A DNA stretch of 64,000 nucleotides from the IMG/VR virus record IMGVR_UViG_3300013121_000043; one strand, 5' to 3'. This DNA comes from an uncultured virus (IMG/VR IMGVR_UViG_3300013121_000043) (Duplodnaviria > Heunggongvirae > Uroviricota > Caudoviricetes). Below are positions 12,800 through 37,179 of the stretch, piece after piece. Numbering within the stretch: position 1 is the first letter of the stretch; every line of letters starts with the position of its first letter. The notes below the pieces were generated by a model. That model was not told the DNA's origin. It ran no database searches and was given only the letters and a program-made list of their open reading frames with translations. A program made the position numbers and the translations under genes.

Positions 12800-12819
12800 T
12801 TATCTTGCCAGGGGTGAGT

Positions 12820-15800
12820 ATGTTCTCTGTTGTTTTCCTGCCACGCTACCGTGGCTTGGATCCTGTGCGCGTAAGCATGCGTGTATGGGGTCGTACCTGG
12901 ACTTATGGTGTCTGGGTAGACGCCTGCTTGTACCGTGCCAGGCCAAGTTACGCGCGCTACTCTGGGACCTACTTTGGATCCGTCCGTCAGGTGTGAGCAT
13001 GATTCATGTTGCGTTTACTAGACCGGTTACGGCTCCTGGAATGCATCCACGGATGCGCGCCTGTCTGCGTATAAACACCCGTATCTGGTTGTTCGGTGTT
13101 TGGACGGAGCATGCCCTGTATCGTGCCAGGCCGGCCTATCTGCGCTACAAGCGCTACACTTACCAGCAGAGGTAAACATGCTACAACACTCCCGCCGCTA
13201 CTACCATGTGTTCTGGTGGGCGGCATTCCAGGGACCTGCGTGTAATACGCATCTATACATCCATGTAGACCTTAGCCGTCGACCACCACCCTGGCCGATC
13301 AGCTGGCACTGTGGTACCGTGACCGTGTCACGCCGGTCGCAGTCTTTTCGCTTCGTGGGCTATAGCTGTGTGCTGTCCCGAACTGAGCCACTCATTGGGT
13401 GGAGTAATGTTACACAACAGTAAGCGGTACTACTCGGACTATCTGTGGAACTGCGTGAACTTCACGCGTATATCCGGGTCCCCGCTGCCACACTATCACT
13501 GGCATCTGCCACACTATCACTGGCATCGTGGTACAGCCTACTTCGTTGAGAATGGCCGCTACACGACCTTTCAACTTCGCGTCCACTGGTTTTACAGGAC
13601 GCGACGTTACGACACCTCTACGGTCCCGGAGTTACCATGATCATTCCTGTATTTCTGCTTTACCATCCCAGGGTGCATACCTTTTCTACCAGGATGCAGC
13701 TTGGCGACTACGTCTGGACTTATGGTGTCTGGACGGACCTGGGGCGCTACCGTCTCTGGCCTGTCTACGCATGGAAGGTCAGTCACAATCCTCCGGGACC
13801 AGGACGATGATCCACCATGCATCGCGCCATCGTATCCTGGCCGGGACGGCGGTACCAGGGCCTGCCGCACGTAGTTCCTTTCTCTTTCTGATACCTTTAC
13901 GCTGGCCCGTACGCTGGCAGTTTGGTACCTGGAGCCCAGCATCTCACCCAAGGTTTTCCCGGTGCCCTGGGTACAGCTGCTTCCTGCGTCGCATTCTCAC
14001 GTCCTGATAGACACATCTGGAGTCGTCATGATTTGTCCCTTCCTGCCGATCTATTATCGCAAGCTCAAGATGGTGAGCTGTCGCTTGCGTATCAACACTT
14101 ACACCTGGGCGTACGGTGTCTGGACGGACATGGGACGCTATCGTCTCTGGCCTGTCTATTTACGACACGTCAATCCTTCTTTTGTTGGGATGCCATGATT
14201 CATCACCCCCATCGCTACCTGATACACCCACTACCCGCATGCCATGGACCCGGGACTCACGCCGGCCTGCAGTTCTACGTGACCGGCTGCTGGCAACTAC
14301 GCTGGCAGATCGGGACCGAGGTACCGGCCAACCATCCGGTGTTTTATCGATGTCCGGCCTACTGCTGCTTAACCTGGTCTGGTTGGGGAGAACGGCAATG
14401 ATTCACAATAGCAAGCGCTACGCCTGGGAAAGATTATGCAGGTGTCGTGTTTGCGACCGGGTCGGGCTACCCCCCACCACCACGGGCACCTTGTTTTTAC
14501 GAGCCGATGGTTGTTCCACGCCGCGGTTGACCTATCAGTGGTGGTACAGGACCAGGGTCTGCCTGCTTTATTTCTGACTCAAGGGAACCTTCCGGAGGAG
14601 ATCCATGCTATCGCGGCTTAATAGGTACGCCTGGGAGAAGCCCTGGGTGCGTATCACAGACTGGCCCAGAATCTGTCGTTACGGGTTATTTGGCGCCTGG
14701 CCTCACTCGGCGGCGGTCCTGCGCGCATGCAGGTATAATCGCTACCTAACTCTTTGGTATTAGTACGGGAACATACCATGGTACATGTCTGCAAGCGTGT
14801 CACAGGCCCGCGGCTAGTTGGGACGCTGACGACAACGAGATTACGTACATCCCTGTGGTATCGCGGTGTGCGCTATTATTGCGACGCCTGCGAAACAGGT
14901 CACGTCTACCCGGCTCTATTTTTCTATGTCGCCTACGGATGATGGAAGTCTACCATGATCTACCACGGCTTTACCACGAAGTGTTACCCACGTGTCTGTC
15001 CCCTGGATACGGCAGGTTATGTCCGTACGCTACGGTTCTGGCAGTACCTGCACCGGGACAGTTTGCACTACTACCGGGTGTTTCCACGTCAGTAGGACTA
15101 CCAGGAGGCAGCATGACACGTAAGCAAAGTCAGGTTCCCAAACCGTAAAGACCCACTCCCTGTACAGGATGAGTTTATGTTCTTCTACAGACTACGCTGG
15201 AGCTTCTATCGATTGCCCTGTCGTAGCACCAGAATACTGTTTCGGCACGAGGCAGGACCGCTGTATCTGCGTTACTGGGACTCAGGTGTTTGCTGTAATA
15301 TGTACGAGCTGGCTGCTCAAAGAAGGAGATGCGCAGTCGGGAGCTAGCCGTGTCTGTTGACCTTCCTCGGAATTCCGAGGAAGGTCTAATCGGTCTCTGT
15401 GGTCACCAGCATAGGCGAACAGCATGATTCACCCAGCAGCACATTACAGTCTCTACGTATGCCCAGTTGTGGTGGTACAGGCAGATACGCGTATACATGA
15501 ACAGGTAACGTATATCCTGTCCAGCGGCGTCTGGGTGGCGGAATGCCTATACAACCTTGCCCCCTATTACGGTAACCACACACCCGACGTCTTTCGTGAT
15601 CCTCGTACCTTTATTTTGAGATGACTGTGACCCCAGGCTTCTTGTTGGAGTAATACATGTGGGTTTCGATTTTCACATTGAGAGTTTCCTGGCCGGGGCT
15701 GCGTGGCCCCTGGTATTACTGTTACTTCAGCTACACTGTGGCTGGGTGCCAGTACCCCTGGGCGCTTGGCGCCTGGGTAGCTCCACACTTTAGGACCCTT

Positions 15801-15830
15801 GCCCCCTACTACCCTACGATGAAGCGATGA
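12820..15830 (+). other. micro-ORF array B (~14 ORFs)
   Basis: Starts at 12820, 12999, 13178, 13407, 13637, 13807, 14028, 14195, 14398, 14605, 14778, 14956, 15424, 15657 (MIHV, MLQHS, MLHNSK, MIHHAS, MIHNSK, MIYHG, MIHPAAHY...). Confidence 0.75.
15359..15386. repeat. perfect 28-bp palindrome centred on GGAATTCC
   Basis: GACCTTCCTCGGAA|TTCCGAGGAAGGTC. Confidence 0.9.
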
Positions 15831-15901
15831 TCCCGCCGTACATTTCAGTGTGAACTGCAGCCAGGACGTTGGTGTCCTGGCCTTTTTGTAAGGAGTTAAC
15901 T

Positions 15902-16513
15902 ATGACAACTATGACAGCATTGACGCCGGAGCAGCACGACCATGTGATGAGTTGTTATAAGTGGGCCATCAAGCTAGCTAACACATTTCAAAGGAAGTAT
16001 TCCGTGCTTCAATCACTGGACCGGGATGACCTGATCCAGGAGAGTTTACTGGCACTCTGTCGCTGTGCCCGGCAGTTCAAGGAGGAACGCGGTAAATTGA
16101 CCACGGTCACGTTCCTGGCGGTTAAGCGTCATCTGCTACGCTATAGCTGCGTGGACAGGCTGATAAAAATGCCTGCCGACGGTGTGAGCAGCGGTGAGGA
16201 GCGAGATCGAGTGATGCTCCACTACAACAAGCTAAAACAGGTCAGTCCCGACGCCCTCTATCTGATGCCAGCCCGGTCCGAGGAGGAGGAAGATGGCTGG
16301 CTGGACCACAGGCAGCTGCAGGAGGCGCTACGGGAACTCCAGCGTCAGCATCCCCTGAGGTATGAGGTACTGGAGCGGAGGCGTCAGGGGTGGTCCTACG
16401 CCATGATCGCCAACGAGTATGGCATCAAGGAAAAGCGAGCCTACCACCTGACGGTGCTCGCCATTAAGTTTATCCGGAAGTTCATCTTTACGGAGGCAAC
16501 ACAGTCTTCGTAG
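15902..16513 (+). CDS. sigma-70 family factor (alternative, regions 2 and 4)
   Basis: AAGGAG RBS; DRDDLIQESLLALCRCARQFKEERGKLTT; C-terminal GWSYAMIANEYGI HTH. Confidence 0.8.
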   Translation: MTTMTALTPEQHDHVMSCYKWAIKLANTFQRKYSVLQSLDRDDLIQESLLALCRCARQFKEERGKLTTVTFLAVKRHLLRYSCVDRLIKMPADGVSSGEERDRVMLHYNKLKQVSPDALYLMPARSEEEEDGWLDHRQLQEALRELQRQHPLRYEVLERRRQGWSYAMIANEYGIKEKRAYHLTVLAIKFIRKFIFTEATQSS

Positions 16514-16573
16514 GGTGGTAAATCCAGACTTTCTCCAAGTTTGGAGGAAGGTGTAGTTTCACAGGAGTAGTAC

Positions 16574-17104
16574 ATGACTTTTCGCGTTGTTTTGCTGCGT
16601 GACCTTACACAGCGTATGGAGCTGGCCGTGGAGGCTACCACGCCCGAGGAAGCGGAAAAGATAGCCCTGAGTTACGCCGGCCCGCACGGGTTGAATCTCA
16701 CCCTGGAGTGGGAGGACCTACAGGGTAGCTACCCTGTACGGGTGGGCGAGAAAACCATTCCGCAGGAGTGTGAGGTGTGGGATACAGTTTGCACGCTGGG
16801 ACAGTACTTGCTTGAGCGCTACCTGGCGGGTGACAAGGTCGTGCTGTTTGTGCTTGACTCAAAGTCCCAGCAGCCCGGGATTCATATCCCCGCGGGCCAC
16901 ACCTGTGGTTATGTGCCTGAAACCTATCTGAAGCTTCTGGGTGAGGCTTGTGTGGACAGAAACGAGCCTGCCGGTGACCCTGTGTGGCGTTGGAATGGCT
17001 CGGGTAGGATCGTCACGGATTGCGATGACCACACACTGGTACGCCTGGAGGCGTTTATCGACGAAGAGCTGTGGGATAAGCTCGTAGACGGCGCAAACAC
17101 GTAG
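16574..17104 (+). CDS. hypothetical protein
   Basis: AGGAG RBS; N-terminus similar to 9395. Confidence 0.7.
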   Translation: MTFRVVLLRDLTQRMELAVEATTPEEAEKIALSYAGPHGLNLTLEWEDLQGSYPVRVGEKTIPQECEVWDTVCTLGQYLLERYLAGDKVVLFVLDSKSQQPGIHIPAGHTCGYVPETYLKLLGEACVDRNEPAGDPVWRWNGSGRIVTDCDDHTLVRLEAFIDEELWDKLVDGANT

Positions 17105-17157
17105 CCAGAAATAAGAGACGCGCCCTCGATTATTGCCGGCCATATTCACACACTTCC

Positions 17158-17201
17158 AGGCCCAAAAACCCCTGAAAAATAGGGGTTTTTGGGCCTTTTT
17201 T
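17158..17201 (+). terminator. intrinsic terminator
   Basis: AGGCCCAAAAACCCCT/AGGGGTTTTTGGGCCT plus T-tract. Confidence 0.8.
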
Positions 17202-17284
17202 CGGAATAATCAGTACCATGATGATCTTTGTAATGATCTGTAACTTTATCATCTTTGTTATTTTTGTACTCATACCACACCGCC

Positions 17285-17311
17285 TAAAAACCGGGACGAT
17301 CCCTGGTAATA
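17285..17311 (+). promoter_or_regulatory. promoter motif TAAA-N16-GGTAATA heading micro-ORF array C
   Basis: TAAA aaccgggacgatccct GGTAATA, 32 nt before ATG 17344. Confidence 0.75.
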
Positions 17312-17343
17312 TTTCATGAGTAGTTTTTTACTAAGGAGAGATC

Positions 17344-20300
17344 ATGATCTACCCCGCCAGTTATTACGTGGCGCTACCACTCCGCGGCAGGTTGCGAACG
17401 TGGACGGACTCTGGATCCAGATACTACGGCTGGTGCTACGGTGTCTGTTTGCAGGAACAGCCCTATCGCTTTGCTCCCTACTATGCCGCCATGGAGAGAG
17501 GCTACAACGGATTACCCATGTACACCTAGGAGCGGTCATGATCTTTCCCAGCAGCTACCGCATGTACTTTTTGCCGCCACCCAGAAACCAGCTTCGCGTC
17601 GTCGCCGCGATGTACCTGGAAGATTACACCTGGGGCTATGGGGTCCTGGTGGTCGAGCGCTACCATAACTTCGCGCCCTACTATGGAAATCCCCAGGAGG
17701 ACAGCTGGCTCAGTCTGGGCCTACCACGCTATGTATGAGGAGCAGAAAGATGATCTTTCCGGCCAGCTATTACAAACGGAGTCGGCGACCGCTCAAGCAA
17801 AGACTGCCAGGTCTGATTATCTGCCGGGTAGCCGTGGGATACCCCCTTTGCTGTGGTGTTTGGGTGGAGGAACGTCGTCTGGACGTCGGACCTTATTATG
17901 ATCACGCGACAGTGCCACGTTACGTTTCCATGAGGTACCTATGATCCAACCCTCGGCACACGCTATTTTTTATGAGCCTCCTGTGATAGTCACAGGGCCG
18001 GACACACGCATCGCCAGGCCGGACCCGGAGTACCCTTATTACCCAATGGGTTGCGGCGTCTGGGTGGCGGAATACCGCCACGGGTATGCACCCTACTACG
18101 GTCGTCACGACTATAACGATCCTCGTACCCGTATCAGGAGATACCTGTGATCCAGCCCGCGTCGCGCTTTGTTTTCTGTAGGTTCCCGGCTGCGGTGGTA
18201 CCGTCCAGTACGAAAATTCCCAGCGAGACCATGTATGTGTGCTACTGCTGGCCCGTGGGCGTCTGGGTGTGGGACTACCGCTTTCAGTACAGTCCCTACT
18301 ACGGAATTCATGGTGGGAATTTTACCACGGATCCATTCCAGGATTATCGTACCCAGATCAGGAGATAGAACATGATTCTCTCCGCCAGTCACTACCCCTT
18401 TTCAGAGCCTCCCAACCGGGTTGTGTCCTGCACCACCTGGTTCTGGATGGAGGGGATTACGTGGCGCAGCGGCCCTCGGTTGCAGGATCTGGGCTTTGTC
18501 TGGGCACCCTACTATGGTCATACCCTCCGGCAAGGACGAGGCGGCCGGTTATCCGACTCGCGCTGTCTCGTTTTCCGAAAAAGGTACCAGAGGTAAGACA
18601 TGCTTCTTCCTTCCTGTCATTACACCTTTTCCGACGTGGTAGCAGCGAGTAGTACTATGCTACCCGGCGGACCAGGCAAGCATTACGTCTGGTGCAATGG
18701 TATCTATCTCCAGGGACAGGAGCTGTACTATGCTCCCTACTACCTGGTACACGTACGGTCGTTTCGTCGCCTCTACCTTCGGAGATAGGGCATGATTCTT
18801 TCCGCCAGTCACTATAAGTTCACAACAAAACATCCGATCATGCGCATGCGGTTTGTCCCACCCCATACCTTTCTCCTCAGCTGGTGGTGTTTCGGTGTTG
18901 TACTGACCGCGCGCCCGGATTGCTACGCACCGTATTACAACCCCAACGACCCCGAGAACAAAGGATGCGTGGACGGTCGCACCCTTATTGTGAGGCCAGC
19001 ATGATCCACCCCGCCTCGCATTATGTGTCACGGGCGTCTGCCCCAGTGCCGGTAGTCAGAAATGTACTGCGACTGACCTGCCACTACTGCTGGTCCGCGG
19101 GCGTCTGGTTACGTGATCGTTTTGTCAGCTACGCTCCCTACTACGGGAACTGGGATCCCGAGCATCCCCAGGCCGAATCCAGGACGCGTAGCGTCTAGTC
19201 AAGAGAAACCTATGGTGTTTGTGCTCAACAAGTTACATCTGAGCTGTCTGAACAGACCCTGGCACCACTGTTGCCTCCAGTCGGGATCGGCTGCCCAACC
19301 GTACCCCTGGGTGCTCGGCGTCTGGGTGGTCCCACGGCTAGGAACCATTGCTCCTTATTACCCCTCGGTGAAACGATGATTCACCCTGCTGGTTATTATG
19401 TGTGGCGTCGCCTGACCCATCAGCTGTGTAGCTGCTCGCCGGTTGTGTATGTTGACATCTATCCCTGGTTTTCCGGGACATGGCTGGTGGAGGTCAGTCA
19501 GGATTACGCGCCGTACTACCCTGCTGTCCTTAACGTGAACTCGCGGTTCTTATGAGAATCTACTCATGATCTACCCGGCAGCCCAGCAGGTGGCGGCTAC
19601 CGGGCAAGTTTACCTCCTCGCAAGAAAGGTGAGAGACCATGTTCTGGTGTTTCAACGGAAAGCGCAGTGTGCGCAGGGTTCGGATGGGAATGAGCGTGAC
19701 AGTCCACCATATCGGCTTTACCTACAACTGGTCCCTGGGCCCGTACCTGTATCGTGACAACGTGGGCTACACCCCCTACTACCCCAGTCCCTACCAGACG
19801 TCCGCGTTCTGGAGGTGGTTTGATACTTACATGCGCTGAAAAGCACAGACCGCACATCTGTTTGAAATTACCGGAGGTGGAATGATTCACCACAGCAAGC
19901 GTAACTCCCGGGAGCTTCTTTACAGAACCCGGGTGTCGGGTTGCGAGCTACAGGCCAGGATATCCGGTCGCTGGCGTTATCGCTACTATCTGTGCCGCGG
20001 CTGTTGCTTTGACGTACCGGAGTATCTGTTTCTCCTGTTTCATGCCCGTTACCGTACCTATTGGAGTTATGGTGATTCATCACAGTAAGGTCAACGGGCG
20101 TGCGCTTCTTTACAGGATTAAGGTGTCGGGCTGCGAGTTGCACGCCAGGATAGCCGGCCGTTGGCGTTATCGCTACTACCTGTATCGCGGCTGTTGGCCT
20201 GTAGACCTGTGGAGGGACTGGGGTGAATGATCTTGACGCGCTGATCAACCGCATGTCTTCACGCCAGCAACGGCTGTTCGCCTGTGCGTGCTGTCGTGAG

Positions 20301-23300
20301 ATCTGGCACCTGATGACGGACCCGAGAAGCAAGAGTGCTGTGGAGGTGGCAGAGCGGTTCGCGGATGGCGAGGCAACGGAAAAAGAGTTGGCTGCTGCGC
20401 AGAATGCTGCGCAGAATGCTGCATGGGATGCTGCGCAGAATGCTGCATGGGATGCTGCACGGGCTGCTGCACAGAATGTTGCATGGGATGCTGCACGGGA
20501 TGCTGCATGGACTACTGCATGGGATGCTGCACGGGCTGCTGCACAGAATGCTGCACGGGCCGCTGCATGGGATGCTGCACGGGTTGCTGCATGGGTTGCT
20601 GCATGGGCTACCGCATGGGATGCTGCGCGGGCATCCCAACTTCACATCGCCCAGTCCTTTTTCCCACCCACTGAGGCCGTCCCCATCCAGATCCCTCAAC
20701 ATCTGCGTGCTGACATGTTCGCCGTCATGGATCAGTGTTACTACGACCGTGATGAGCAAGGGCGGATGAAGGCGGAGCATACCTCAATCCTCGCCGACAT
20801 GTATGAGGACATCGGTTGTGCGCAGGCGGTGGAGTTGTTGCGAGGGGACACGCCGCTGTATCGCGGCTGTTGCTTTAGCACACCGGAATATCTGTTTCTC
20901 TTGTTCCACACGCAATATCGTACCCACTGGAGGTGGGATGATTTATCACAGCAAGCGACTGCTCGATGAGTACAAGATACCTGTCGTACATCGGCCGAAT
21001 GGGGTCTGCCGTATCCGGCACCGTGGTCGGATGAAATATCTGATGCTGGGCTGTAACTTTCCGCTTTGCCCGCGACTGCACTTCCAGTACCGGTATCGCA
21101 TCTACATAGATTCCACTTCAAGATAGTGGAAAGAGGCAAAACACATGCTACACCGCAGCCTGTTTTTTGTTGGCTATCGTCGCCGGCAGTGCGGACCGGG
21201 TATTGCTATTAGCACCACTATATATGGTGGATTGATCCGTTACGGGCGTGGAGTACACATCCCACGCTATCGGGTGCCCCTGGCCTTTTACACGGGCACC
21301 TGGGTGGGCTAGCATGATTATCCGCTCCATGCGCTATTTTCACATTCGTGTGTACCACATGCGCTGCTGGCAGGGCCCACGCGCCGGCACAGCCATCCCC
21401 TGGCGTAACCTGGTGTACTACTGGTCGTCCGGGATCTACTTCAAGCCGTACGGGACAGTTCCTGAACGACACCAGCGCTGTCTCGTGGTCTAGCTTCAGA
21501 AAGGAAGCGCACAATGCTTGTACGATCCGGCTGGCTTTATGGCAGTACATACAGGCGCATGCCCAGGCTCTGCCGTCGAACCACACGGCTGATCACAGTC
21601 GTGGAGGAGGAGTACGACCATCGCCGGGACTGGCAGGATGGTACCGCCTGCTGCTACTTTACAAACCGTAGCAGCATCTTCTGGTCGCAGCCGCTCGTCT
21701 GGCAGTTACGGGGATGGTTCTGGCTGCGCGATTAGTCTTCTGGAGGAGTATGTTACACAATCTATTGGGTAGCTACTACCCACACACGCGTCAACGTACT
21801 CGTACCTGGGGCTGGTTTTCTGGACTTTTTTGTTCGTGGGACGAAGGAGTCCTGGTTAGAGACACCGGCGACATGTACCTGAACCACCACGCAGCCTATC
21901 ACCATATCGAGCTGTGGTAGGCAGGAGTGACTATGCTTATACGCACGCGCTTACGCCCTTGTTACCACTGTTACCTCTTTTTTGGGTTGAGAGGTCTGCG
22001 CCTGCGCTTTGACGCATCACGGGATTTTACCGTGACGCGATCCTTTTCCTGGGGTCTGGGGATATTCTTACAGGATACCCAGGCACATGGTGTTGTTTGT
22101 CCAGGTTACTATCGCTATCTCACGGCAACGCATTCATGATCCACCACAGTAAGCGGTTTTCGCTGGAGCTAGGCTACTCCCATGTCAAAGAGCACGACTG
22201 CGTGCTGGGAATCTGGTATCTGCTGGGCTGGGGGATCACCCTGGCGAATTTCCCTGTCAGGCAGTTTCATCACGGCTACCGACGCACCTGGGTCTTTTGG
22301 GTCAAGGAGCAGGATACATGATCCATCATAGTAAAAGGTTTACCGACGAGCGGCTGCGGCGCGCGGATCGTTACGGCCACGTCTGCTCCACGACGGTGCG
22401 GGGCAGCTGGCGCAGCACGCGATACTGGCGACTTATCCTGGGCTGTGAGTTTTACAACAAAGGACCACGACTACCGTTTCACTATCGCAGTCGGATTCAG
22501 TTTATCTCGGGGGTCTAAATGCTTCAGCATAGCAATATGTACTACAACTGCTCGGCCTATTATCACAGTCACATGCGCGACCGTGTACCGCGGACGCAGT
22601 CCTGGCAGGCCGGGCCCCCTCGCCGCCCGTTTTACTGGCACACCGGGGTTACTTTTCACCGGAACGGGGTTCCCTCCTCCTGGTGGTCGGCCTACTACGG
22701 TCCCATCTATGTCACGAGGTAACAATCCCATGGCTATTTATGTGCGACCATACCCGTGCTACCATGCCAACCTCTTTCTCCGATTGAAATGGATGTGTCT
22801 TATATGTTGCGTACCGAAGCAACCCGCCTGGAAACACAAAATTTACTGGCGTCTGGGAATATTTTTCCCGAATACCCAGGCCCGTAATGTCATCCAGGCC
22901 AATCGGCGACACTACAGAACGTCACTCTATCTGTGATTTGTATGATTCACCAAAGCAAGCGGTTCCCTACCCTGGGGCTATACGACGGTCCTGGCCGAAA
23001 CAGCAGCCTGAGAATTGCTGCCAGTTACTGGTGGTATCGTCTGGACGCAGGCACCTACCTGCGTGGCTGGCACAAGAAGTTCTTTCTACCCAGGTTGAGG
23101 GAGCCACGCTAGATGCTCTACAACAGCGGTAACTACGTCTGTCTGTACCGGGCAAATCCGTGGTTTTTGCTACGGATGCAGCATCGAAACGCCCGCTTCT
23201 ATACCGTTTACTACCGCCTGGGCACCCACAACGGCTTTCACCCTCTCTCCCGTGCCCGGTATACACGGTATTATTGCCCGACCCGCGTCCGCCGGGATTA

Positions 23301-24635
23301 GGTCAGAAAGGAGAACACCCCTTGATACCCCACCAGCGCTGGCAGTTTAGCCATTACCGCCGCGTGCCGCGCTATCGGTTGATCCTGTATTCGGTCCAGT
23401 TACCTGGAATCCCTGGGATCCCTGCCTGGGGGACCTGGAGCAGCCACGTGACCTGGACCGACGGTATCATTCACGATGGCGACCACAACATGTTCCTCTA
23501 TTCGGATGCAAACGGGTGCGGACTCCGGACCAGGATAGCCCAAGATGATCTATAACAAAAAGATGTCCTGGAACAGCCAGCACAACATTACCACGCTGAG
23601 TGACGGGCGTCGCTGGGCTTACGGGGTGTTGTTCCATCACGCGATCCATCGTTACCTGGCCGTCACCGCCTACAGGCCGCTGATGGTGATGCACACCTGG
23701 ATTACCATGGCCTACCGCCATGTCTCGGAGCCCTAGATCATGCTCCTGGCCTACAACCGTCCGTCCGGCTGGTATGGTCATCTCTGCAGCCCCTGGCTGC
23801 TGCTCCGGGTGTCCCAGCCCAGACAGCAGGTGATCCGGGCCTACCGGCTGGGTACCTTCATCCAGGGTGAGATATTCAGCCATCACTACTACCTGAATCT
23901 CCAGCTGGCCGTGGCACTACCCCCGTGGCGTCACGGCCTGCGTACATTCTACCGGAGGTAATTCGTGCCTATACACACTCCAGATTTCATTTACCGTGGG
24001 CCCTTTCGTAGCCCGGTCACCACACAGCTGTCGTACCGGGAACCCGGCGATAGCCTGGAGATCCTGATCGGCATTGGCTGGCACCGGTATCTGCGCAGTT
24101 TGCGTCATTATCGTTATCTGTTCTTCTTTCACATGACGCGCATCAGCACACCGTCGCTAAGGATTCGACGACTGGGGTATACCAGCGACATACAACCTGT
24201 GGTGGTAGCTTGATTATGCTTATTACCACAACCGATGTTGCGAGCTATGCGCGAGCCTGGCGCTATGGTTACATCCATTTTCAACTACATCCAACCCGGC
24301 CTGTGTGTTTCCTGCACCGGTGGAATAGCACATGCCGGTATTACCCGTCCCGCCTGCTCTGGCTGTATGGGTGGGCTGTCCAGATCGAGTGATATACCAC
24401 AGATAGTACCAGTGCCCGGCGGCCGGGAGTCCAGTGTGCTGGTTGGATCAACACTCGGTAGAGGAAAAGTCGTATGCTCTACACCCCAATCACCAACGAC
24501 AGCTACATACGGTCCTGTCGTTATGCCTATGGATTTCTTCGTTTACACAGGGTTCGACCACTGTGTTTTCTGCATTACTGGAACGGGACACAGCGACCTG
24601 CGCAGCGGGGCTGGACCATCAAAATTAGGAGGTAA
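17344..24635 (+). other. micro-ORF array C (~34 ORFs; APYY subfamily followed by MIHHSK subfamily)
   Basis: Starts at 17344, 17538, 17750, 17941, 18147, 18372, 18600, 18792, 19001, 19212, 19376, 19566, 19639, 19882, 20072, 20938, 21145, 21314, 21514, 21750, 21933, 22136, 22318, 22519, 22730, 22942, 23113, 23322, 23545, 23740, 23965, 24216, 24474. Confidence 0.8.
20223..20969 (+). CDS. helical AAWD/AARA tetrapeptide-repeat protein (Planctomycete RLFACAC...RGCW type), C-terminus chimeric
   Basis: [51 protein letters not shown]; 12-bp periodic repeats at ~20391-20632. Confidence 0.8.
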
Positions 24636-24637
24636 TC

Positions 24638-25093
24638 ATGTTAAGGCCAGATTGGATCAATCTGTTGAACCGCCTGGGTCGTATGGTTTCCATTACACCC
24701 CAGCAGGCCGTGTACACTTTCGCGCCGGATCGCACCCTGGAAATCGAGGGACCGCACCGTATTGTCGGCGTCTATCCAGGATTCTACGGGGACACCCGCG
24801 TCGTGTACACCTCGCTGGACGAGGCCCTGCGTGCGGCCACCGGCGGTCTCTATTCCGGGCTGAATATTTGCCGCTATTTCCACATGGAGTTTGGCTGTAC
24901 ACCCCAGGGGAGGCTCGTGGCACGGCTTCGCTACTACAACCTGGATAGCTCGTCCCTGGAACACCAGGTTCCGGATGGCGATCCCTGGCTGGATAACCTG
25001 GTCGATCTCTTCCAGAGCAAGGAGATGCCGCAGGAGCGGGTCGCGATGCTCCACGACTATTTGCAGGAGGTAGACCATGCTCCGCAATCCTGA
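24638..25093 (+). CDS. hypothetical protein
   Basis: GGAGG RBS; C-terminal helical MLHDYLQE motif. Confidence 0.7.
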   Translation: MLRPDWINLLNRLGRMVSITPQQAVYTFAPDRTLEIEGPHRIVGVYPGFYGDTRVVYTSLDEALRAATGGLYSGLNICRYFHMEFGCTPQGRLVARLRYYNLDSSSLEHQVPDGDPWLDNLVDLFQSKEMPQERVAMLHDYLQEVDHAPQS

Positions 25094-25274
25094 TCATCCG
25101 GATATCTGTCGGTGGCGGTCGTACAAGTTCAAGCGACCAACGTTGGGGATGCGCCACCGTAACGGTTCTTTTGTCAAGATCTTATGGCAGATCGGGACCC
25201 GCAAGATCGATGCGTCGAACCGTTACCACATGTTCCGTGAGTGTTACAGACCGCCGTGGGTGATCAGCCCTTAG
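25077..25274 (+). CDS. micro-ORF
   Basis: GGAGG RBS; R/W/Y-rich. Confidence 0.55.
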   Translation: MLRNPDHPDICRWRSYKFKRPTLGMRHRNGSFVKILWQIGTRKIDASNRYHMFRECYRPPWVISP

Positions 25275-25297
25275 GCTATGTGAAGGAGAGAACGAGG

Positions 25298-25609
25298 ATG
25301 ACGCGTGTCTGTTTGATCGACGTGGCGAGCATGCCACGACCCGGGCTGTATCATTACTTCCGCCTGGATGAGAAGGCGTTTGTTCAGGCGGTCAAGAAAG
25401 CCCACCGGGAGAACCGGTTGTGGGCCTATCTGCGCAAGGAAGAAATAGCCCACTACCTGTTCGACAGCACAGGTATCTTGTTTGGAGCCAGCGAGACTCC
25501 GCTGGAGCTTCATTCCCTGGACACGTTGCTTGTTTGCTATCTACAGGAGGACCAGAGCTGGCATTACGGTCGTGTGACCTACGTGGCCTGGCCCGAGGAG
25601 GAAGAGTAA
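25298..25609 (+). CDS. hypothetical protein
   Basis: GAGG RBS; 103 aa. Confidence 0.7.
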   Translation: MTRVCLIDVASMPRPGLYHYFRLDEKAFVQAVKKAHRENRLWAYLRKEEIAHYLFDSTGILFGASETPLELHSLDTLLVCYLQEDQSWHYGRVTYVAWPEEEE

Positions 25610-25649
25610 GATGAAACGTAAGCTGGCAGGCTAGCCCAGACGAACACAC

Positions 25650-25688
25650 GAACCCCTGTTGACAGGTGTCAACAGGGGTTCTTTTTTT
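25650..25688 (+). terminator. intrinsic terminator
   Basis: GAACCCCTGTTGACA/TGTCAACAGGGGTTC plus T7. Confidence 0.85.
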
Positions 25689-25701
25689 ACCCATCGAGAA
25701 A

Positions 25702-25728
25702 TAAATTACCCGCCCAAGTGTGGCAATA
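25702..25728 (+). promoter_or_regulatory. TAAA-N16-GGCAATA promoter motif
   Basis: Directly after a terminator and before ATG 25767. Confidence 0.75.
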
Positions 25729-25766
25729 TAGCTTGCTACCTCGCTACTACCTTTCAGGAGAAAATC

Positions 25767-26411
25767 ATGTTGTCATTAAAAGCAAGGCCTGAGGTGGTTC
25801 TTACCTCCAGGTTGCGGCGGCTGATACTCTGTGCGACAGTTCGCTACTGCCGACGGTTTCCAGACTTTCAGAAGGAGGTGAACGCCATCCTGGACGTGGC
25901 CGAGTGTATCGCGGACAGGCGTTTTTATACGCTGTCTATGTGGAAGAAGGCCCGATTTTTTCTGGATAAGATTCATGACAACCGGAGAGCTACTATCGAT
26001 GTTTTTGGGTCGAATCGGCAGAACCTGTTAAACGGAGAAGCCTATCTGTGCCTGGGCACCGCCCTGGGACAGGACACGATACACGGTTACATGCTAAATA
26101 GAGCGATCTGGCTCTTGATCAACCAGGGGGATGTAGTGGCGACCATGGAGCACTACGAGCGTACCTTCTTGCCCTGCTATTACCGGCTGGGACATCACCA
26201 GCAGACCATTCCTGGTCACCTGCGCGAGCTAGCGGAGGCCTGTTACAGCGAGCGCAACGAGGATGGTAGCATGAAGCACGAGCTCGTATCTCTACTGGCC
26301 GACGGCTACGCGGACGAGGGTGTGGAGCTACCCCAGCAACAGCTGCAGCAGGGACTGTTTCTCTATCGTGGGCTGTGGTTCGTGGACTTATTACGACCCA
26401 TCCCGCGCTAA
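25767..26411 (+). CDS. helical protein of the same family as 20223
   Basis: RLILCATVR...HLRELAEACYSER..LLADGYADEG..LYRGLWFVDLL. Confidence 0.75.
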   Translation: MLSLKARPEVVLTSRLRRLILCATVRYCRRFPDFQKEVNAILDVAECIADRRFYTLSMWKKARFFLDKIHDNRRATIDVFGSNRQNLLNGEAYLCLGTALGQDTIHGYMLNRAIWLLINQGDVVATMEHYERTFLPCYYRLGHHQQTIPGHLRELAEACYSERNEDGSMKHELVSLLADGYADEGVELPQQQLQQGLFLYRGLWFVDLLRPIPR

Positions 26412-26423
26412 AAAAGAGACACC

Positions 26424-27003
26424 ATGCTACACGACCGCACCCTGGCCGTGCTGAATCACCTGTACGGCTATGAGCGCTTCGGCTATCGGCAGACCGTTAT
26501 CAGAAGCGCATACCTGGAGATAACGAATATGCCTTACCGGTTACCCTGGCGCATCGGTTGTTACGCGGCAGGTACACGTTACTTTGCCACGAAGATACGT
26601 GTTGTTCGGGACAAGAGGCGTCGAATCTAGATCGAGGGTAGAGGGTTGGTATGATCTGCTACAAGCAATGGGATACCCGTTATAAGTACCCGCACGTGGG
26701 GACGTACTACCAGCGTGCCTCGGGAATGTTACGTCTGTGGTGGCACGGGGTGGGACTGTACAGTTACAGCCTGGGAACCTGGTGGCATCCGGACTACGCC
26801 TGTGGCTTTCCCACCTATGTTGTCCTGGAGCGCGACTGATGCTGTTACCATCCCCTGGCTTTTTCGTGGCCTGCCAGCAACGGCCGCAGACAACCACCCG
26901 ACTGCGGGCACACGGTCAAACGTATTACTTTTCCACCCTGGCACTCTGGCGCAGTCGCTGCTTCACGATCGCGTACTGTGCCTGGTATGCCCATAATGAG
27001 TAG
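26424..27003 (+). other. three micro-ORFs (26424, 26651, 26839)
   Basis: MLHDR, MICYK, MLLPS; Y/R/W-rich. Confidence 0.6.
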
Positions 27004-27008
27004 GAGAA

Positions 27009-27530
27009 ATGATGCTCAAGTTCATGAAGCCTGAAATCCTCGTGAAACTGAATGAGGACAACGAGAATACACCGGACGCGGTGGCTCGTGCCATGGAGGT
27101 AGAGGATCAGTGGGAGGAGAATGGCAAGCAGTACGCTGCCAGGCTCAGGGAGATTACCCCGCGGCTGCCCGACGGGGTCGTTACATTCTTGAACAAGGCT
27201 TGCCTGCACGATGCTGCCATGCTCGGGGAGCTTACCGGCGTGGGCGGGCGGTCGCTCGTCCTTCTGGCCAAGCTTGTGCTGCCGCGCATAGACAGCGACA
27301 ACGAGTGCTGGTACTACGGACTGTATTACCAGGAGATTCGTGAGCTACGGACCGTGATGCACGAGGGTTCGTACTTCACGGAACTCGATCCCCATCCCGA
27401 GTGGGCCTATGACGAGTTTGATATCACGGAGGATGGCTACATCGTGCACAGCATTCTGTTCAGTGATGGGCGGGAGCTGGAGATCACCTTCCGGCATTTT
27501 ACGTGGACGCAGACTTTGCGTCAGGAGTAA
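27009..27530 (+). CDS. DUF4085-like protein
   Basis: CLHDAA...WAYDEF...HSILFSDGRELEITF motif pattern. Confidence 0.6.
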   Translation: MMLKFMKPEILVKLNEDNENTPDAVARAMEVEDQWEENGKQYAARLREITPRLPDGVVTFLNKACLHDAAMLGELTGVGGRSLVLLAKLVLPRIDSDNECWYYGLYYQEIRELRTVMHEGSYFTELDPHPEWAYDEFDITEDGYIVHSILFSDGRELEITFRHFTWTQTLRQE

Positions 27531-27534
27531 AGCG

Positions 27535-28149
27535 ATGATTTGTCGTATTACAAAGTTTGGTGATACCTACGCTGCCTGTCTGCTCTGGGGGGAGGCGACG
27601 ATGATGCGTTCCGCCCCCTCGCTGCCGGAGGCGATCGCCCTGTGTCAGGAATGGTCGCGTAACGCCACAGGGACGGCCATTGCCGTGGATGCCATCGAGC
27701 TCTGTCCTACCTGCTGGCAGGAGCTGTATCCGGATGCCGACATCGGCATGCTTGTGGACAAGCTGGAGAAGTCGTTCCAGGCGCTGCCCAAACGGGCGGC
27801 GGTGGCCCGCGCCGGTACCGAGTACACGCTTGGTAGCGCCCTGTCCAAGTTCGTGGACGACTGCTACGCCCTGCTTCCTTCTATCCTCCAGGCGTTTCGC
27901 GAGCAGGCCATGCTTCTGCATGACCTCCAGGAGGAGTCCCAGGCAGCCCGGGAGGTGATGCGTCTGCGGGAAGTTGTGAAAGAGCTGGAGGCAAGGCAGA
28001 CCTGTGCTACCTGTGAGGGTTCAGGCTGGCAGGGATCTCTGGCAGGTGGCCAGCCGTGTCCTGCATGCAATCCACCACGCCCGTCCACCTCCCTTCTGGA
28101 TGGAAGGATTTTTGGCCCGGGTCGTTTTACAAGTGAGGAAACGACATGA
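27535..28149 (+). CDS. hypothetical protein with a DnaJ-type Zn motif
   Basis: CATCEGSG...CPAC; shares a 51-bp segment with 28962. Confidence 0.7.
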   Translation: MICRITKFGDTYAACLLWGEATMMRSAPSLPEAIALCQEWSRNATGTAIAVDAIELCPTCWQELYPDADIGMLVDKLEKSFQALPKRAAVARAGTEYTLGSALSKFVDDCYALLPSILQAFREQAMLLHDLQEESQAAREVMRLREVVKELEARQTCATCEGSGWQGSLAGGQPCPACNPPRPSTSLLDGRIFGPGRFTSEETT

Positions 28150-28487
28150 CACCTAACGAGAGACGGCGACAGCGAGACGTGATCTATCAGACCCTGGATT
28201 ATCCTTACGCGCTACCTCTGCAGGCCCTGGCGGATCTCCACGAGGAGTGTCGTGGTCCAGACGATACCATGGTTCTGGGACTGCGCTGGCTGGCACGTCA
28301 CAGGAAGCAGCCCAGCAGGACGCCAGAGCGCTTTGTGTGGTACTTCTGCAAGTGCCCTGGCCGGGACTGCGAGCTCCCCGCGGACAGGGATTATACCGTG
28401 GAGCAGTTGACAGCAACAGCCGCGTTCATCCTGGCGGCACACACTGTGGGCAGCAAGATTGCCAGAGGAGTCGTGAGTCGTGAGTAA
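28146..28487 (+). CDS. hypothetical protein, weakly TIGR02996-like N-terminus
   Basis: LQALADLHEE..GLRWL; ATGA coupling. Confidence 0.6.
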   Translation: MTPNERRRQRDVIYQTLDYPYALPLQALADLHEECRGPDDTMVLGLRWLARHRKQPSRTPERFVWYFCKCPGRDCELPADRDYTVEQLTATAAFILAAHTVGSKIARGVVSRE

Positions 28488-28728
28488 GTCCCGGGCCCAT
28501 ACTTTTACCATGCACTGGCTGCCGACCGAGAGCCTGCCGGAGGGACTGGATGCCAGTACTCTGGAGACCATGTGTAAGGCGATGCTACAACACGGCTATC
28601 CCGACTTCATCTGGCTCCATTGTGAGGATGGCAGCCCGGTCTGTCTGCAACTGGAACACTACCTGGTGGAGAGCAGCAACCAGACTGTGGCACATCTGAG
28701 AAAGGCAGGGAAGCTGAAGGATGGGTAA
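28480..28728 (+). CDS. hypothetical protein
   Basis: AGGAG RBS; coupled. Confidence 0.6.
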   Translation: MSKSRAHTFTMHWLPTESLPEGLDASTLETMCKAMLQHGYPDFIWLHCEDGSPVCLQLEHYLVESSNQTVAHLRKAGKLKDG

Positions 28729-28961
28729 CAAGGCAGACAGTGCCAACCTGAATCGGGTTCTGGATCCGTTTCCTTACCGCGAGCTTCTGGCTACCATGCC
28801 AGCCGACCACAGATTCCCTGGTCGTGGTCTCGCAGCTGCGCGGCGGGGTCGGCCAACCTTTCCCACCTGCTCACGTTTGAGCTAAGGGCTGTATCGCTGA
28901 GCGAGGCCTACTTTCTGGCCGCCGTCGTGATGGGTGGGTTTTTACGTCAAGAGGAGTAGCA

Positions 28962-29552
28962 ATGTACTGGATCAGTCAAGACGATAACGGTATGTATCAC
29001 TGCGCCTGCAGGATTCAGGACGGTACGGAGTACTGGCATCACCCCACACTTCAGGAAGCCATCGAGTCGATGATTTCCGGGGCGTACATCCTCAACCACA
29101 ATACCATCACGCAGCAGGATATCACGTTCTGTCTGCGCTGCCGTCGCGAGCTGGGCGAGGCTGTACCCCAGGAGCGGCGAGTGGAGCCTGCCGGGGATGG
29201 TCTGGACTATCTGCAGGAGCTGGAAGAGGCCTACGCCAGACTACCCGAGAATTTTCGCGGCGGGCAGATTCTCTATCCCAACATGGATCCCATCGCCACG
29301 TTCCATGCCCTGGCGCGCTCCTACCTGCCCGGGATGATCCGAGACCTTCGCGAGCAGACCATGCTTCTGCATGACCTCCAGGAGGAGTCCCTGGCAGTAC
29401 GAGAGGCCATCTACTACCGGGAGGCGTTGCAAAACATCCTGGATAGCCTGCCGGCTATATCTCCTCACGCCATGTCGCTACCGCCGACCCTGGGACTGAT
29501 CGTGAATAATGTTCGGGAGCTGGCCCAGAAGGCTCTGGAGAAGACGGTATGA
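28962..29552 (+). CDS. hypothetical protein
   Basis: GAGGAG RBS; REQTMLLHDLQEES shared with 27535. Confidence 0.75.
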   Translation: MYWISQDDNGMYHCACRIQDGTEYWHHPTLQEAIESMISGAYILNHNTITQQDITFCLRCRRELGEAVPQERRVEPAGDGLDYLQELEEAYARLPENFRGGQILYPNMDPIATFHALARSYLPGMIRDLREQTMLLHDLQEESLAVREAIYYREALQNILDSLPAISPHAMSLPPTLGLIVNNVRELAQKALEKTV

Positions 29553-32500
29553 TAGCAACCAATCATCGCTACTGGATGGATCAATCACTTCCACACCCAC
29601 GGGTGACCACCCTCTTCGCGGGTTTGCGCAATCTTCTGTGTGGTATGGTTTCGCAGTCCTACTGGAAGAGTCTCTACCGACACGACGCCCTGTTCCCGGG
29701 CTACTACACCCAGATCTATTCAGCCGGAGAGCGTGATGATCTATCACAGTAAAAACTACATGCCCGATATGGCGGTGGAGTGTAGCACGGTGCTGCGCTG
29801 TTCGTCGGGCCGCCTTGCCCTTTCGACAGGCTGCTACGCGGATCATCACGTCTGGTATCAAATGGGTTACGATCGTATCGAACTCATTCTGGAACGGCAG
29901 AACCCCTATTCCACGGAGGATTGAGGTGATCAAGCCTCACAAGTGCCTGTGTATCTACAAGCCGTTCTATCCGGGTGACTATCTCTGGTATTCCTGCTGG
30001 AATAGTAGCGCAGCGTTTTCCATGACCCTGCGCAACTACCACTATAGCATGCGCTTTCGCTATCTGTCTCCCGTCCCTCTTCTGGGCAACATGACCTGGT
30101 TGTCCCAGCTTCCTCACCGGATCAAGTCCCATGATTAGTCCCTACAAGTTTCGCTGTGGCTATGCACGCCTGTCTCCAGGTGCCTATCTGTGGTATCACA
30201 CCTCCGATTCTGATGCCAATTTTCACTACGTCAGTTTTGTCGTGGAGAGCTTCTGTCGTGGCACACGCTTCAGGTGTAGCTGGGGCACAGGTGGTAACTG
30301 GAGCACACTCATGTCAGGATTACCTGTTCACGTCTAGGAGCAATACGTGGTCTTTTCTCACGGTAACTGCCGATTTTTCCGCTATCGATTTCCCAGAATC
30401 ACACTCTACTGGCGGCTGGTAATGACCCGACCGATCCAGTCGCTGGTGCTCTTTCGTAGCACCGTGTTCTGGTACAGGTCCAGGACCGCGGTAAGAAGGA
30501 GCGGTTACGCCATTTTGCTCATCCGGGGAGTGCGACATGCTCTCGCGGGCTAGCTACAGGTGGCGCTACTACGCCAGTCCCTGCTGTTGTGTTGTCGCCC
30601 TGTCTCCAGCTTCCGACACCGTACACCTGTACCATCACCTGCTACACAGCCACGGTACGGCGCTTTCTTACTGCAGTTTGGTATATGACTGTTTTTTCAC
30701 ACGACGCGTTACACGTCTTCTCTGGCTTACCAGTATCTCGGATAGGGGCCGGTACCGACAGGAGATTTCATGATAGTAGCTGTGGAATGTCATAAGTACC
30801 AGTATCCCAGTAGCTACTTTTCCATCCGGGCTGGTCGATCCGGGCTGGTCGATCCGGACACAGCTGGCGTCATTTTCGTATGGCGTAGGTGCATAATCAT
30901 CATGCCATGGAGGTTACCTATACGGCCGTTGGTACGGCCAGCCGGCACCGCCAGTATGCGTTACTACCCTGGCTGGTAAACCGAATATGAGAAAAGCTAT
31001 GTTGATTCGTTACTGTCAGCGGCACTACTGGTATATACCCAGGCTGCGCCAGCCCTGGCGTCACCAGATGCAGGTGGTTTTTCCAGGCTGGCTGTACCCG
31101 AGGGAGTGGTGCTATGGTGTTTTTTACACCGACGCAGGACATATGCACATACCCAGCCTCAAACCTATTCCTCGCCCCTGTTACGTTTGTTAATAAGGAA
31201 GGGTCTGTATGTTACACGGACGGAGGCTATGCCCAACAACCGCTGGATGCTACCGGCGACCCGGTCGCTGGCTTCAGGAAGTCTTTAGCCTGTGGGCGGG
31301 ACCTGTTTTTAAGGCCTGGTGGTACGGTACCACGGTTATGGATAGACCGAGGGACATCCCAGGCACGGTGCCCGTGAGGATAAGTTACCAGTGATCTACC
31401 GTAGTAAAGGCCTGGTGGAGAATACCCCGAGATACCGCCATCCTGGGCGGTTGTACCGGGAATTACTGATCCTGCAGCTAGGTGCACCACACTACTATGG
31501 ACGCGGCTATCGCCACGGTACCATGTTTGTGGAGAATCCCGGGAACCCGATAACCCGGTGTTCTGTCCGAGGGTTCCCCTGGCGCTACTGCACAACCTAC
31601 TGAGGTGGAGTCATGTGTTATGTTGCCAAGCGCGCGATGTATCGCGGCACGTTTTATCACTACTATGGTCGCGGCTGGCCCGTATCGACCTGCCTGGGTA
31701 ACTATGCGTTAAGAGGCGGAGTCGCCTTGCCGTTGATCGGCATAACCCGTTGGCGTAACGGTACTTATGTCTTCCCACCAGAAGGGTATTCCTTTGATTT
31801 TTCACAGCCGTAATACGCGACCATGCTGGTATGTCACAAGTTATCTGCGTTACAGGAGTTATCCCTACTGGCACTATCGGCACTGGGGTTGTCTGGTTTT
31901 TGGTGTGCTGTACTCCGGGTTCTACTACTACCCCCGTGTCAACATGGTTGCCTGGAGTGGTAGAGAAGAATAGCACGCCCCTGTGGAGTAATCCATGATT
32001 CGACCACTGATTCTGCGCCCTCTGTTGTGCTATGGGTGCCGTGGCACGCTCTACCGTCGTGGCTCTTGCCGGTACTTCCAGCCTTACGGCTGTGCCATGA
32101 TGGAGCGGTGGGTGGGGCGTCGTGGCTGTTTTTGGAGTGTCAGATGATCTACCACTGTAAAAACCTCCGTCCCGGTAACGTCGTGCTCTGTGTCACGGAC
32201 GTGGCCCTGGAAACAGACTGTGGTTTTGGCTTCGGGGTCTGGAACCACATTCCCAGCTGGTTTGATGGTTACGATCGTGTGGATATGGTTTTGGCGAGAT
32301 ACTGGTCATGATTTACCGACCTGGTGTTCGTTCCTACCGCTATCATCTCTTCTGCTACACCCTGTACCGTACACACCGGGGCGGTTACAGGTATTTTGGT
32401 ACGGTACATACCACCCCGTCTGGGTTGTGGTTTGGCAGCTCACTACAGCGACACGTCTGGCTTTTTTACCCACGACTGAGTGCGCGGCCTTGTTGCGAGG

Positions 32501-35500: not shown

Positions 35501-37179
35501 TATCATCATTTTCAGCAAGGATGGTCCGAGCCTCTGGTACGAAGGTGTCTACCCGCGGATGACTTGTTACACCTACCTTTACACGTGGGGTAGTTCATCA
35601 TGATCTATCACTGCAAGAATAGACCGGCAGCGTTTGCCGTGTATCTTTCCCTGGGCTTTCTGGCTGGGCGCGGTAATGTGTCCCACACCTGGTGGGAGGG
35701 TACTCTCATGGACAGGAATGGGTACAGTCGTTGGCTCGTAGAGACCTATCGGCGGGTCGTCTGCGACACTTTCTTTTTACCCCCGGTAATTCGATCATGA
35801 TCTACCACTGTAAGCGACCGCCTGGCAGGGAAAGCTATCGGCCGAGAGATGCTGTTCTGCTACCGCGTGTCGCGTTTTACTATTTCCATGATGTCTTTTT
35901 CTCCCATGTCGTGTGGTGTTACGGTCCGAAGTTTCTTTTCGACCGGCACTGGATTGATAACGTACAGCATCGTTTCACTCGCGTACAGGGGCTGTAGCAT
36001 GCTCAAGGGTGTCTTTCCCAGCCGTGTTGTTTTCGGACCTGCCCGGTGTGGGGGCGGGTTACGCTTCAACCTCTATCTGCTACCCCGTCGCGCCAACACC
36101 TACCACATGCTAGGTGTCTGGTATTTCTGTGGTTGCAAGATACGCGGAGCCTATCCGTACACCACGCACTGGGCTTGAGGAACACCATGATCTACCACTG
36201 CAAGAACCACGTCATGGCCGGGACCGTCTACAGCTACACGGTCTTCCATGCCAACGCGGAGGGCTACTGGTGGTACGGTGTCTGGATCATACCTTCAGAT
36301 GAGGCTGTGACGCGCCGGATCGGTCTGGTATTACGACGCTATCCTGTGTTCTACGAGGTTTAAGTGATGGTACACCACCGCTGGCGTGTGCGCTGGAACG
36401 TCTATTACCCAATGCGCCGCTTTCCCGACACAACCACCCAGCTGATTGGTGGCTGTCCGGAACCCAGTCTGTTTTCCTGGCGCTACGGGACGCGGCCATT
36501 CCCGCGCTCGATCCGGATTACCTTTACTCCTTATGGAGGTCGCTGTGTCCCTGTTCTTCCGGTCTAACTTGTCCTGGACTTGTTACTATAACCATCCCTG
36601 CCACACGACCTATTATTACCTGTCCTGCCACGGCGGTACGCAGCGGCGCTTCCTCCAGTTTGGCTGTCGCCGCCCTGGATGGGCTTACTACTACAGCGTC
36701 ACCCCCGTGATCGAGGTGCACCGTGATTATTAACCACACAGGCTATCTCCCCACGCTGTTTTATCGTCGGACCGCGCAGCGCTGGTTTTACCTGTATCGC
36801 ACCACCTTCCCGGGTAGGGAGGTGGCGGGACTGTGTCTGGGAGATATTCTTCGCAACCGCTTTGAAGTCCGTTTCCCCTGCGTTGGAGCCTGCCGCAGCG
36901 TGCAGCGCTATCGCAGTGTTTTCTGGTGGCCACGCCAGGTAACCACCTTCATCTATGCTGGAAACTTTGCCGTCATAGAAGCCGGAGATGAGGTATCACA
37001 CGATGATCTATAACTGCAAGAACAAGGTGGGTAGCTACCACGCCCGCCTGTCGACAGACTACGACATTACCTACTGGTGGTTGGGAATTCACATCCGTGG
37101 CGTTAACAGTTCGTTTCTGGGAGTGTACTACGACAGGCCGAGCTGCACCACAGTACTGGCCAGTTCTCTCCACCCCTAA
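29549..37179 (+). other. micro-ORF array D (~40 contiguous ORFs, MIYH[SC]K-rich)
   Basis: Starts at 29549, 29736, 29926, 30131, 30347, 30537, 30770, 30999, 31209, 31391, 31613, 31794, 31995, 32144, 32308, 32523, 32704, 32891, 33069, 33251, 33439, 33630, 33800, 33970, 34157, 34333, 34531, 34691, 34881, 35051, 35212, 35409, 35600, 35797, 35999, 36187, 36367, 36723, 37003. Confidence 0.8.

Follow-up and report, generated by a model that had tools for sequence, protein, structure and literature searches.

How a gene of one family came to lie within a gene of another, with the ends of the two proteins exchanged in frame, is the question raised by a locus near 20 kb in a record of an uncultured tailed virus (Caudoviricetes; IMG/VR IMGVR_UViG_3300013121_000043). 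The window analysed is 64,000 nt, one strand, of this single record of 122,303 nt. A1 and A2 denote two microprotein genes starting at 19882 and 20072, of which the second is interrupted, and B denotes gene 20223, which fills most of the interruption. The swap between A2 and B clearly preserves, as a fossil, one instance of a kind of gene shuffling that is already known; it does not yet amount to a new shuffling system. In our reading a phage microprotein array underwent two crossovers at short homology, with closure at a start joint, and the structure is their trace; we give this reading a probability of roughly 0.55.

An exact 17-mer stands at 20180-20196 and again at 20856-20872, as an earlier note on this DNA had reported; the copies are 676 nt apart, and neither side of the match can be extended. 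The present open reading frame (ORF) 20072-20230 has 52 amino acids and ends in the tail of B. Removal of one 676-nt unit yields instead a 73-amino-acid ORF from 20072 that aligns to 19882 without gaps, and the start-to-start units of A1 and of A2 without the insert are then both 190 nt, which bears out the earlier claim that excision restores A2 as a paralog of A1. A1 and the reconstructed A2 are identical at 84/108 positions before the repeat, 15/17 inside it and 47/65 after it, as against merely 28/108 and 13/65 for the sequences that currently adjoin the repeats. Because divergence is alike on both sides of the insert, the two halves of A2 were once one gene, the tandem twin of 19882. The direct repeat flanking the insert is thus found twice here and once, as a third copy with 2 mismatches at 19990, at the equivalent position in the twin gene. 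Since the two 17-mers match perfectly but A1 and A2 show 22-28% divergence, the insert is younger than the A1/A2 duplication, a 190-nt duplication bounded by similar motifs consisting of a ribosome-binding site (RBS) plus start. Several members of the microprotein family end in a GC-F...F-YR pattern, and the same pattern now ends gene 20223.

The other half of the exchange is seen in B. Its family is marked by an RLF-C-C-R head, a LAD-LE--G core and an RGCWxxD tail ~10 residues before the stop; of 259 proteins fetched, 112 pass a filter for the full set of motifs, and these have D four places after RGC in 111/112 and the adjoining W in 85/112, with 98/112 ending exactly 10 residues past RGC. 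Gene 20223 carries the family head and core, and its tail is displaced upstream. The present B ORF (20223 to 20969, 248 amino acids) is matched by full-length relatives mostly up to residue 215-218 and continues with 32 unrelated residues in place of the family tail. Closed into a circle, the unit encodes a 227-amino-acid ORF whose end matches the family, as predicted: with a profile built from 8 relatives the closed ORF reaches 193.0 bits and model position 233, the present ORF 182.7 bits and position 226, and a separate tail-only profile gives 15.0 bits for the closed unit against 3.6 bits for the present end. Of the 2260 six-frame segments into which the window was divided, the displaced tail is the one that this tail profile matches best (E 0.0074). 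Read in B's frame, the 17-mer leads directly into the family tail, where the alignment places it, and therefore belongs to both partners; it encodes LYRGC in A2 and B in the same frame. The insert is accordingly a circular permutation of a unit that contains the repeat, with the family tail upstream of the body and joined to it via the 17-mer in frame. This permutation and the flanking direct repeat are traits of a Campbell-type insertion of a circle at short homology.

Beyond its family B is poorly placed. No Pfam or NCBIfam family matches it, the only matches being to unnamed PHROGs, and Rfam gives no match. Its AAWD-type repeat swamps homolog searches with the whole sequence, and its C-terminal region as sole query found itself alone. 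The structure model has a mean pLDDT of 79 and neither PDB nor BFVD gave a fold match at E<=0.001; the grafted C-terminus falls below pLDDT 50, where the alignment is without depth, and was not used as evidence.

The 17-mer match has an expectation of 0.22 in shuffled sequence, and Markov simulations (n=30) gave zero repeats of at least 17 nt within 2 kb. Exact repeats of at least 9 nt, lying 100-2500 nt apart and in phase in two plus-strand ORFs, were scanned over 7-49 kb; of the 435 swaps tested, a single one, that at the 17-mer, strongly restores paralogs (gain 130; next best 21), in a scan that detects only cases with a third paralog inside the window. The scan agrees with both the paralog and the family comparisons that the C-termini of A2 and B are exchanged in frame, as had been proposed. 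The longest match of the 676-nt unit elsewhere in the window is 13 nt.

The order of parts in the insert has also to be explained. To arise, the permuted structure needs a molecule with the B tail before the B start and then a single crossover at the 17-mer. Whether that molecule was a free circle or a linear tandem makes no difference to the product, and sequence alone does not distinguish the two. At the joint of tail and start, GGAGG stands at 20211-20215 and GTGAATGA at 20223-20230, so that, as already noted before, the stop of the tail overlaps the start of B and the RBS lies in B's own 3' end. The RBS is indeed inside the tail, but this is not distinctive, being ordinary for the family (6/17 successive-tail pairs). 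B starts at the family xDL position without the N-terminal W that is present in 56/71 relatives.

In the first step of the proposed mechanism an array-borne B, its stop overlapping the ATGATC start of the next gene, would have recombined there with ATGATCT in its own first codons, to give a 676-nt one-gene circle or an equivalent head-to-tail copy. The cost would be about nine N-terminal codons of B, which would now start at a GTG preceded by the RBS of its own tail; a crossover between early codons of B and the next gene's start thus predicts both the ATGATCT joint and the W-less start. Closure at this joint is also favored by the stop/start overlap usual in the array (35/55 genes) and by the start motifs that bound the neighboring 190-nt duplication. 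In the second step, whose product is the structure observed, the unit would have crossed over with A2 at a chance 17-bp match, duplicating the 17-mer, permuting B and exchanging the C-termini of A2 and B. The likeliest origin of the match itself is that both genes converged on LYRGC by chance; repair may then have polished it from the 15/17 state that 19882 shows. General or single-strand-annealing recombination would be enough for both steps; no recombinase for short-homology pairing was identified in the window. Excision between the 17-bp repeats could reverse the insertion. The event is a recent one-off, and the swap is probably near-neutral, as it leaves both ORFs open and retains the downstream RBS.

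Several points weigh against this account. Neither an empty allele, nor a circle junction, nor a donor came to light, and the read pieces recovered leave the junctions without cover. A 17-mer shared by chance between unrelated genes is itself unusual. The window holds 18 exact repeats of at least 17 nt outside the 12-nt tandem, mostly paralog versus paralog, and since repeats of this length are not rare there, weight is placed on the reciprocal swap and not on repeat length. Efficient pairing is quoted as taking 23-27 bp for Red-beta and 31-34 bp for RecA (PMC3945230); 17 bp is below these lengths, and the event must therefore be rare. Rad52-like phage recombinases, described in the same paper with the enzymology of lambdoid phages, offer an enzymology for short or imperfect homology, though their efficient 23-27 bp likewise exceeds the 17 bp found here. 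The RBS lies 7 nt from the GTG of B and 11 nt from the ATG at 20227, where 29/30 array genes show 4-9, a spacing that better fits a native GTG start. Paralog 25767 likewise begins short and lacks the W, so the short start of B may be native. This diverged paralog, 22-24% identical to B, has its tail in place and is not the donor of the insert.

The native start bears on a second source for the same insertion at the 17-mer, which we hold tentatively as the chief competitor: the unit would come from head-to-tail B paralogs (B1-B2), with a crossover freeing a circle of B1 tail plus B2 body, or a linear piece entering A2 by two crossovers, and the tail-to-start joint would be the native B1-B2 junction. 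The B family occurs in Gemmataceae, other Planctomycetia and viral contigs, with hosts including Gemmata, Fimbriiglobus and Limnoglobus. A survey classed 55 tail matches in viral contigs and at least 146 in genomes, 6 of them too near an edge. Among the matches listed, a body lies upstream of the tail for 50/55 viral and 132/146 genome tails, and a B body follows within 1.2 kb after 13/55 viral and 44/146 genome tails, so that tandem runs are frequent. Five large viral records hold 7-30 B-profile matches each. Of 17 successive-tail pairs, 11 have the next start at -4 to +12 from the stop, 6 carry the RBS within the tail and 10 share exact blocks of 14-26 nt; together with the RBS spacing that suits GTG, all of this favors a tandem source. 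However, such a source predicts a full N-terminus for B2, and B is without the W-bearing start that 10/13 second genes of viral tandem pairs have. The -8 overlap found here occurs in 0/17 pairs, the ATGATCT at the joint is left to chance, and the window contains no tandem B pair. Head-to-tail runs of 2-4 paralogs were observed at L003, L005, L015, L031, L138, L190 and L200-L203 and at G001-G005.

The proposal that two short-homology crossovers with closure at a start joint made the locus can be asked of relatives as well. The earlier note had advised looking there for other permuted genes and had inferred that single-gene circles or tandem intermediates recombining at short homologies could diversify the arrays in cassette-like fashion. 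Such a circle or tandem does explain the swap, with a joint in the array's own ATGATC form. As a general, array-diversifying mechanism the idea is so far not supported: 1/435 swaps in the window qualifies, and among the matches listed no permuted B-family copy occurs in the 195/201 tails that could be assessed. The same survey contains no case of a tail without body followed by a body without tail, and the five large viral records with many B-family copies have no permuted copy. Tailless downstream bodies flagged at L050 and L138 proved to be artefacts, L037 and L040 were dropped from the family tails as chance matches, and L066 was rejected as a body-less tail on finding the body behind an in-frame stop.

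A stronger version of generality, a dedicated cassette system in which a recombinase (e.g. that at 62045-63136) or conserved joints move genes routinely and the insertion here was mis-targeted, appears improbable. Two single-gene units with start-motif boundaries do adjoin, and the window encodes a phage integrase; that enzyme is 41 kb distant, however, and matches no integron-integrase-specific model. Body-less B tails with stop and RBS flank small unrelated genes at L038:165-540, L049:1700-2040 and L025:6970-7191 (L025/L076), as a cassette system might leave them, yet the point at which these remnants begin ranges from 0 to 17 or more codons ahead of RGC, the pattern expected of deletions, and the codons of family tails vary freely at synonymous sites. 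In L025 a 58-amino-acid ORF is fused to such a body-less tail. The 17-mer has no further copies beyond that in the paralog, and only one event was found in the 435 swaps tested.

A site-specific system is unlikely. An integron cassette has attC, an imperfect inverted repeat of tens of bases, after its gene, with an adjacent integrase of IntI type, and the att site of a tyrosine recombinase has in each partner a 6-8 bp spacer between inverted binding arms. The present unit resembles integron cassettes in being one promoterless, circularisable gene among co-oriented small genes, and differs in the absence of an attC-like spacer and of an adjacent integron integrase and in a crossover inside genes. 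No attC occurs at the unit, where the tail stop overlaps the start, there is zero intergenic room for a site, and self-comparison finds no long inverted repeat; no IntI is found in the window, and 62045-63136 is a Pfam Phage_integrase for which NCBIfam Xer-type models stay below cut-off. A 5-bp inverted repeat with a 6-nt spacer does overlap the right 17-mer, in favor of an att-type site, but the arms are on the B side only, the left arm being missing at the left copy, and a comparable palindrome overlaps 8% of random 17-mers.

Insertion by a transposon-like element with target-site duplication, or a present layout that is ancestral and matches a swap by coincidence, is very improbable. A 17-nt direct repeat does flank the insert, as target-site duplication would have it; the insert has no transposase, however, and the frame of B needs the 17-mer. 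Against an ancestral layout, the family ends (111/112) and the 190-nt period point to the unswapped state.

That the locus is an artefact of assembly or amplification we regard as scarcely credible, even though a single contig is on record and neither junction has read-level cover. An artefact needs three false joints, the tail-to-start joint included, all in frame; contigs from public runs agree exactly with other parts of the region; and common assemblers use words longer than 17 nt, which also counts against it. The public runs contain the phage DNA at low depth, as identical pieces of 151-253 nt, mostly from digester runs of one study, and the pieces of contigs from four runs show no joints and leave 19338-20339 uncovered. 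A 39-nt piece at 20823-20861 was rejected as junction cover because it has 6 differences and is unrelated DNA.

The closest known parallel to the two-crossover reading is the shuffling of the T4-type phages RB49 and phi1, where single small genes of a hyperplastic region exit as circles via short repeated joints near gene starts (PMC2839356). These mini-circles were demonstrated by inverse PCR and may re-insert, with no dedicated recombinase identified in that account. The joints are ~100-bp intergenic promoter/stem-loop cassettes (PeSLs), said there to steer crossovers away from coding DNA and so avoid chimeras. The present locus shares one-gene circles formed from joints near gene starts, the circle here being inferred; unlike the PeSL case as described, it has no intergenic DNA, both crossovers are coding, the gene is permuted and two chimeric ORFs result. 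Crossovers in coding DNA set the swap apart from PeSL mini-circle shuffling. Over 17-27 kb, 3 sigma70-like promoter sites were found against 6.8 expected, none of them at the unit; large stem-loops occur only at 17158 and 25650, none at the unit; and no ~100-bp intergenic motif repeated between genes was found in the array.

Phage mosaicism by boundary-sequence or illegitimate recombination also yields inserts bounded by short repeats. The mycobacteriophage LRRHood insert of 1.35 kb lies between 29-bp repeats (PMC3029335) and is similar in that a flanking direct repeat is single in the empty allele; here the repeat is shorter (17 bp), lies inside two unrelated coding sequences and leaves reciprocal in-frame tails. 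In yeast region B a rearranged order of the insert was read as the mark of a circular intermediate (PMC3053389), in contrast a eukaryotic 17-kb element with many independent insertions and little or no breakpoint similarity, where the present case has one gene, one event and 17-bp identity. In the mostly open-access literature searched, no report of a permuted single phage gene with swapped ends was found, and nothing pertinent to planctomycete phage arrays or the B family.

The coordinates of the features are collected in Table 1.

Table 1. Parts of the A2/B locus and related features of the window
Feature	Position	Strand	Basis or remark
Array of co-oriented, abutting microprotein genes	12805..38939	+	RTGATY start counts
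A1, 68 amino acids, MIHHSK family; intact tandem twin of the interrupted gene	19882..20088	+	
A2, 5' part	20072..20179	+	84/108 identical to A1
Left crossover copy, LYRGC codons	20180..20196	+	exact repeat
Displaced B tail, 11 residues + stop; Shine-Dalgarno GGAGG 20211-20215	20197..20230	+	tail profile, family consensus
Tail-to-start joint GTGAATGATCT; inferred closure point	20223..20233	+	GTG at 20223, stop TGA within ATGATCT
B body, planctomycete-type all-helical family	20223..20855	+	~9 N-terminal family residues absent
12-nt coding tandem repeat, AAWD-type units, inside B	20356..20650	+	
Right crossover copy	20856..20872	+	exact repeat
A2, 3' part, now B C-terminus; holds RBS, overlaps start of 20938	20873..20969	+	47/65 identical to A1 up to next start
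Next microprotein gene, MIYHSK family; start region bounds the 190-nt unit	20938..21126	+	
Diverged intact B paralog, tail in place	25767..26411	+	22-24% identity

The array around the locus is probably more striking than the swap. Within 12.8-39 kb, 55/70 plus-strand RTGATY sites open an ORF of 40-100 amino acids, against 1/25 on the other strand, and in 35/55 of the genes so opened the stop of the upstream gene lies inside the start, as at the B joint. At least 55 such genes of 40-100 amino acids are present, rich in R, Y, W and C and with starts of MI(H/Y)(H/P)(S/C)K type; the repeat families of the array are coding start motifs plus paralog blocks of 28-50 nt. The collections searched contain no close relative. 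A microprotein profile search returned just 5 proteins, all from this 122,303-nt contig, and the profile matched 0/5 of the large viral records. Patterns combining start motif and lineage tail gave 0 viral matches and 38 metagenome matches, none array-like, which are put down to chance. Gene 25767 found no match in metagenomes and nothing in viral contigs, 11512 found one weak locus (L002) in viral contigs, and the sole viral-contig locus found with 20223 (L001) was rejected as spurious. A 60-nt patch at 27896-27955 is 92% identical (33 nt exact) to 29347-29406 in weakly alike paralogs and looks like a recent patch exchange or conversion.

Judged by its gene content, the window appears to be a piece of a large Planctomycetes phage. 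It encodes an RpoD-type sigma factor, a phage integrase, a PcfJ-like protein, SNase and TnpB, and 10/495 of its ORFs match five IMG/VR records of 112-194 kb. The gene at 62045-63136 (-) encodes a tyrosine recombinase that shares 36% identity over 351 amino acids with one in G001; a small gene near it at 60395 (+) is also common to G001, which is matched by 50728 as well. Large low-complexity proteins with KQA/KKA/KRA motifs are encoded at 50728-60322 (+), and a similar protein follows the B run in L031. Sigma-factor-like genes include the RpoD-type gene at 60703 (-) (60703-62157) and a sigma70 region 2 gene at 15869 (15869-16513); 4073 and 4713 (4073-5354) appear by eye to be of extracytoplasmic-function (ECF) type, 4073 having no Pfam match. 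An IS200/IS605-type TnpB gene at 49084-50283 (+) lies close to the curated cut-off, and two adjacent genes at 41099-43749 (+), of 433-450 amino acids, appear by eye to be paralogs with no Pfam or NCBIfam match. Near-perfect palindromes of 28-44 nt occur at 3122-3157, 9638-9681, 11189-11224, 12760-12799, 15359-15386, 40990-41019 and 46672-46712; some are without loop and T-run, two have central GGAATTCC, and that at 12760 stands at the start of the array.

Growth of phage accessory regions is attributed to short-homology recombination, but its junctions are usually erased or intergenic. Here one kilobase shows the target, the insert, the crossover and the likely closure point, and the exchange has produced two chimeric proteins, both in frame, out of unrelated families. 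The adjacent start-motif-ended units and the body-less tails of L038, L049 and L025 lend suggestive support to a step from this case toward a general mechanism, in which the RBS, the overlapping stop and the shared ATGAT(C/T) starts would act lineage-wide as built-in recombination joints through which single genes routinely duplicate, excise as circles and re-insert, a possibility that we consider unlikely at present. If it were true, this would be PeSL-like shuffling wholly in coding DNA, without integrase or intergenic cassette, producing new proteins by tail swaps; two of its products would then stand side by side in the 190-nt twin and the 676-nt permuted gene, and the body-less tails in other planctomycete-type phages would be a parallel case. 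Were start-to-start circles common in the array, they would explain the expansion and diversification of at least 55 microproteins without relatives on record.

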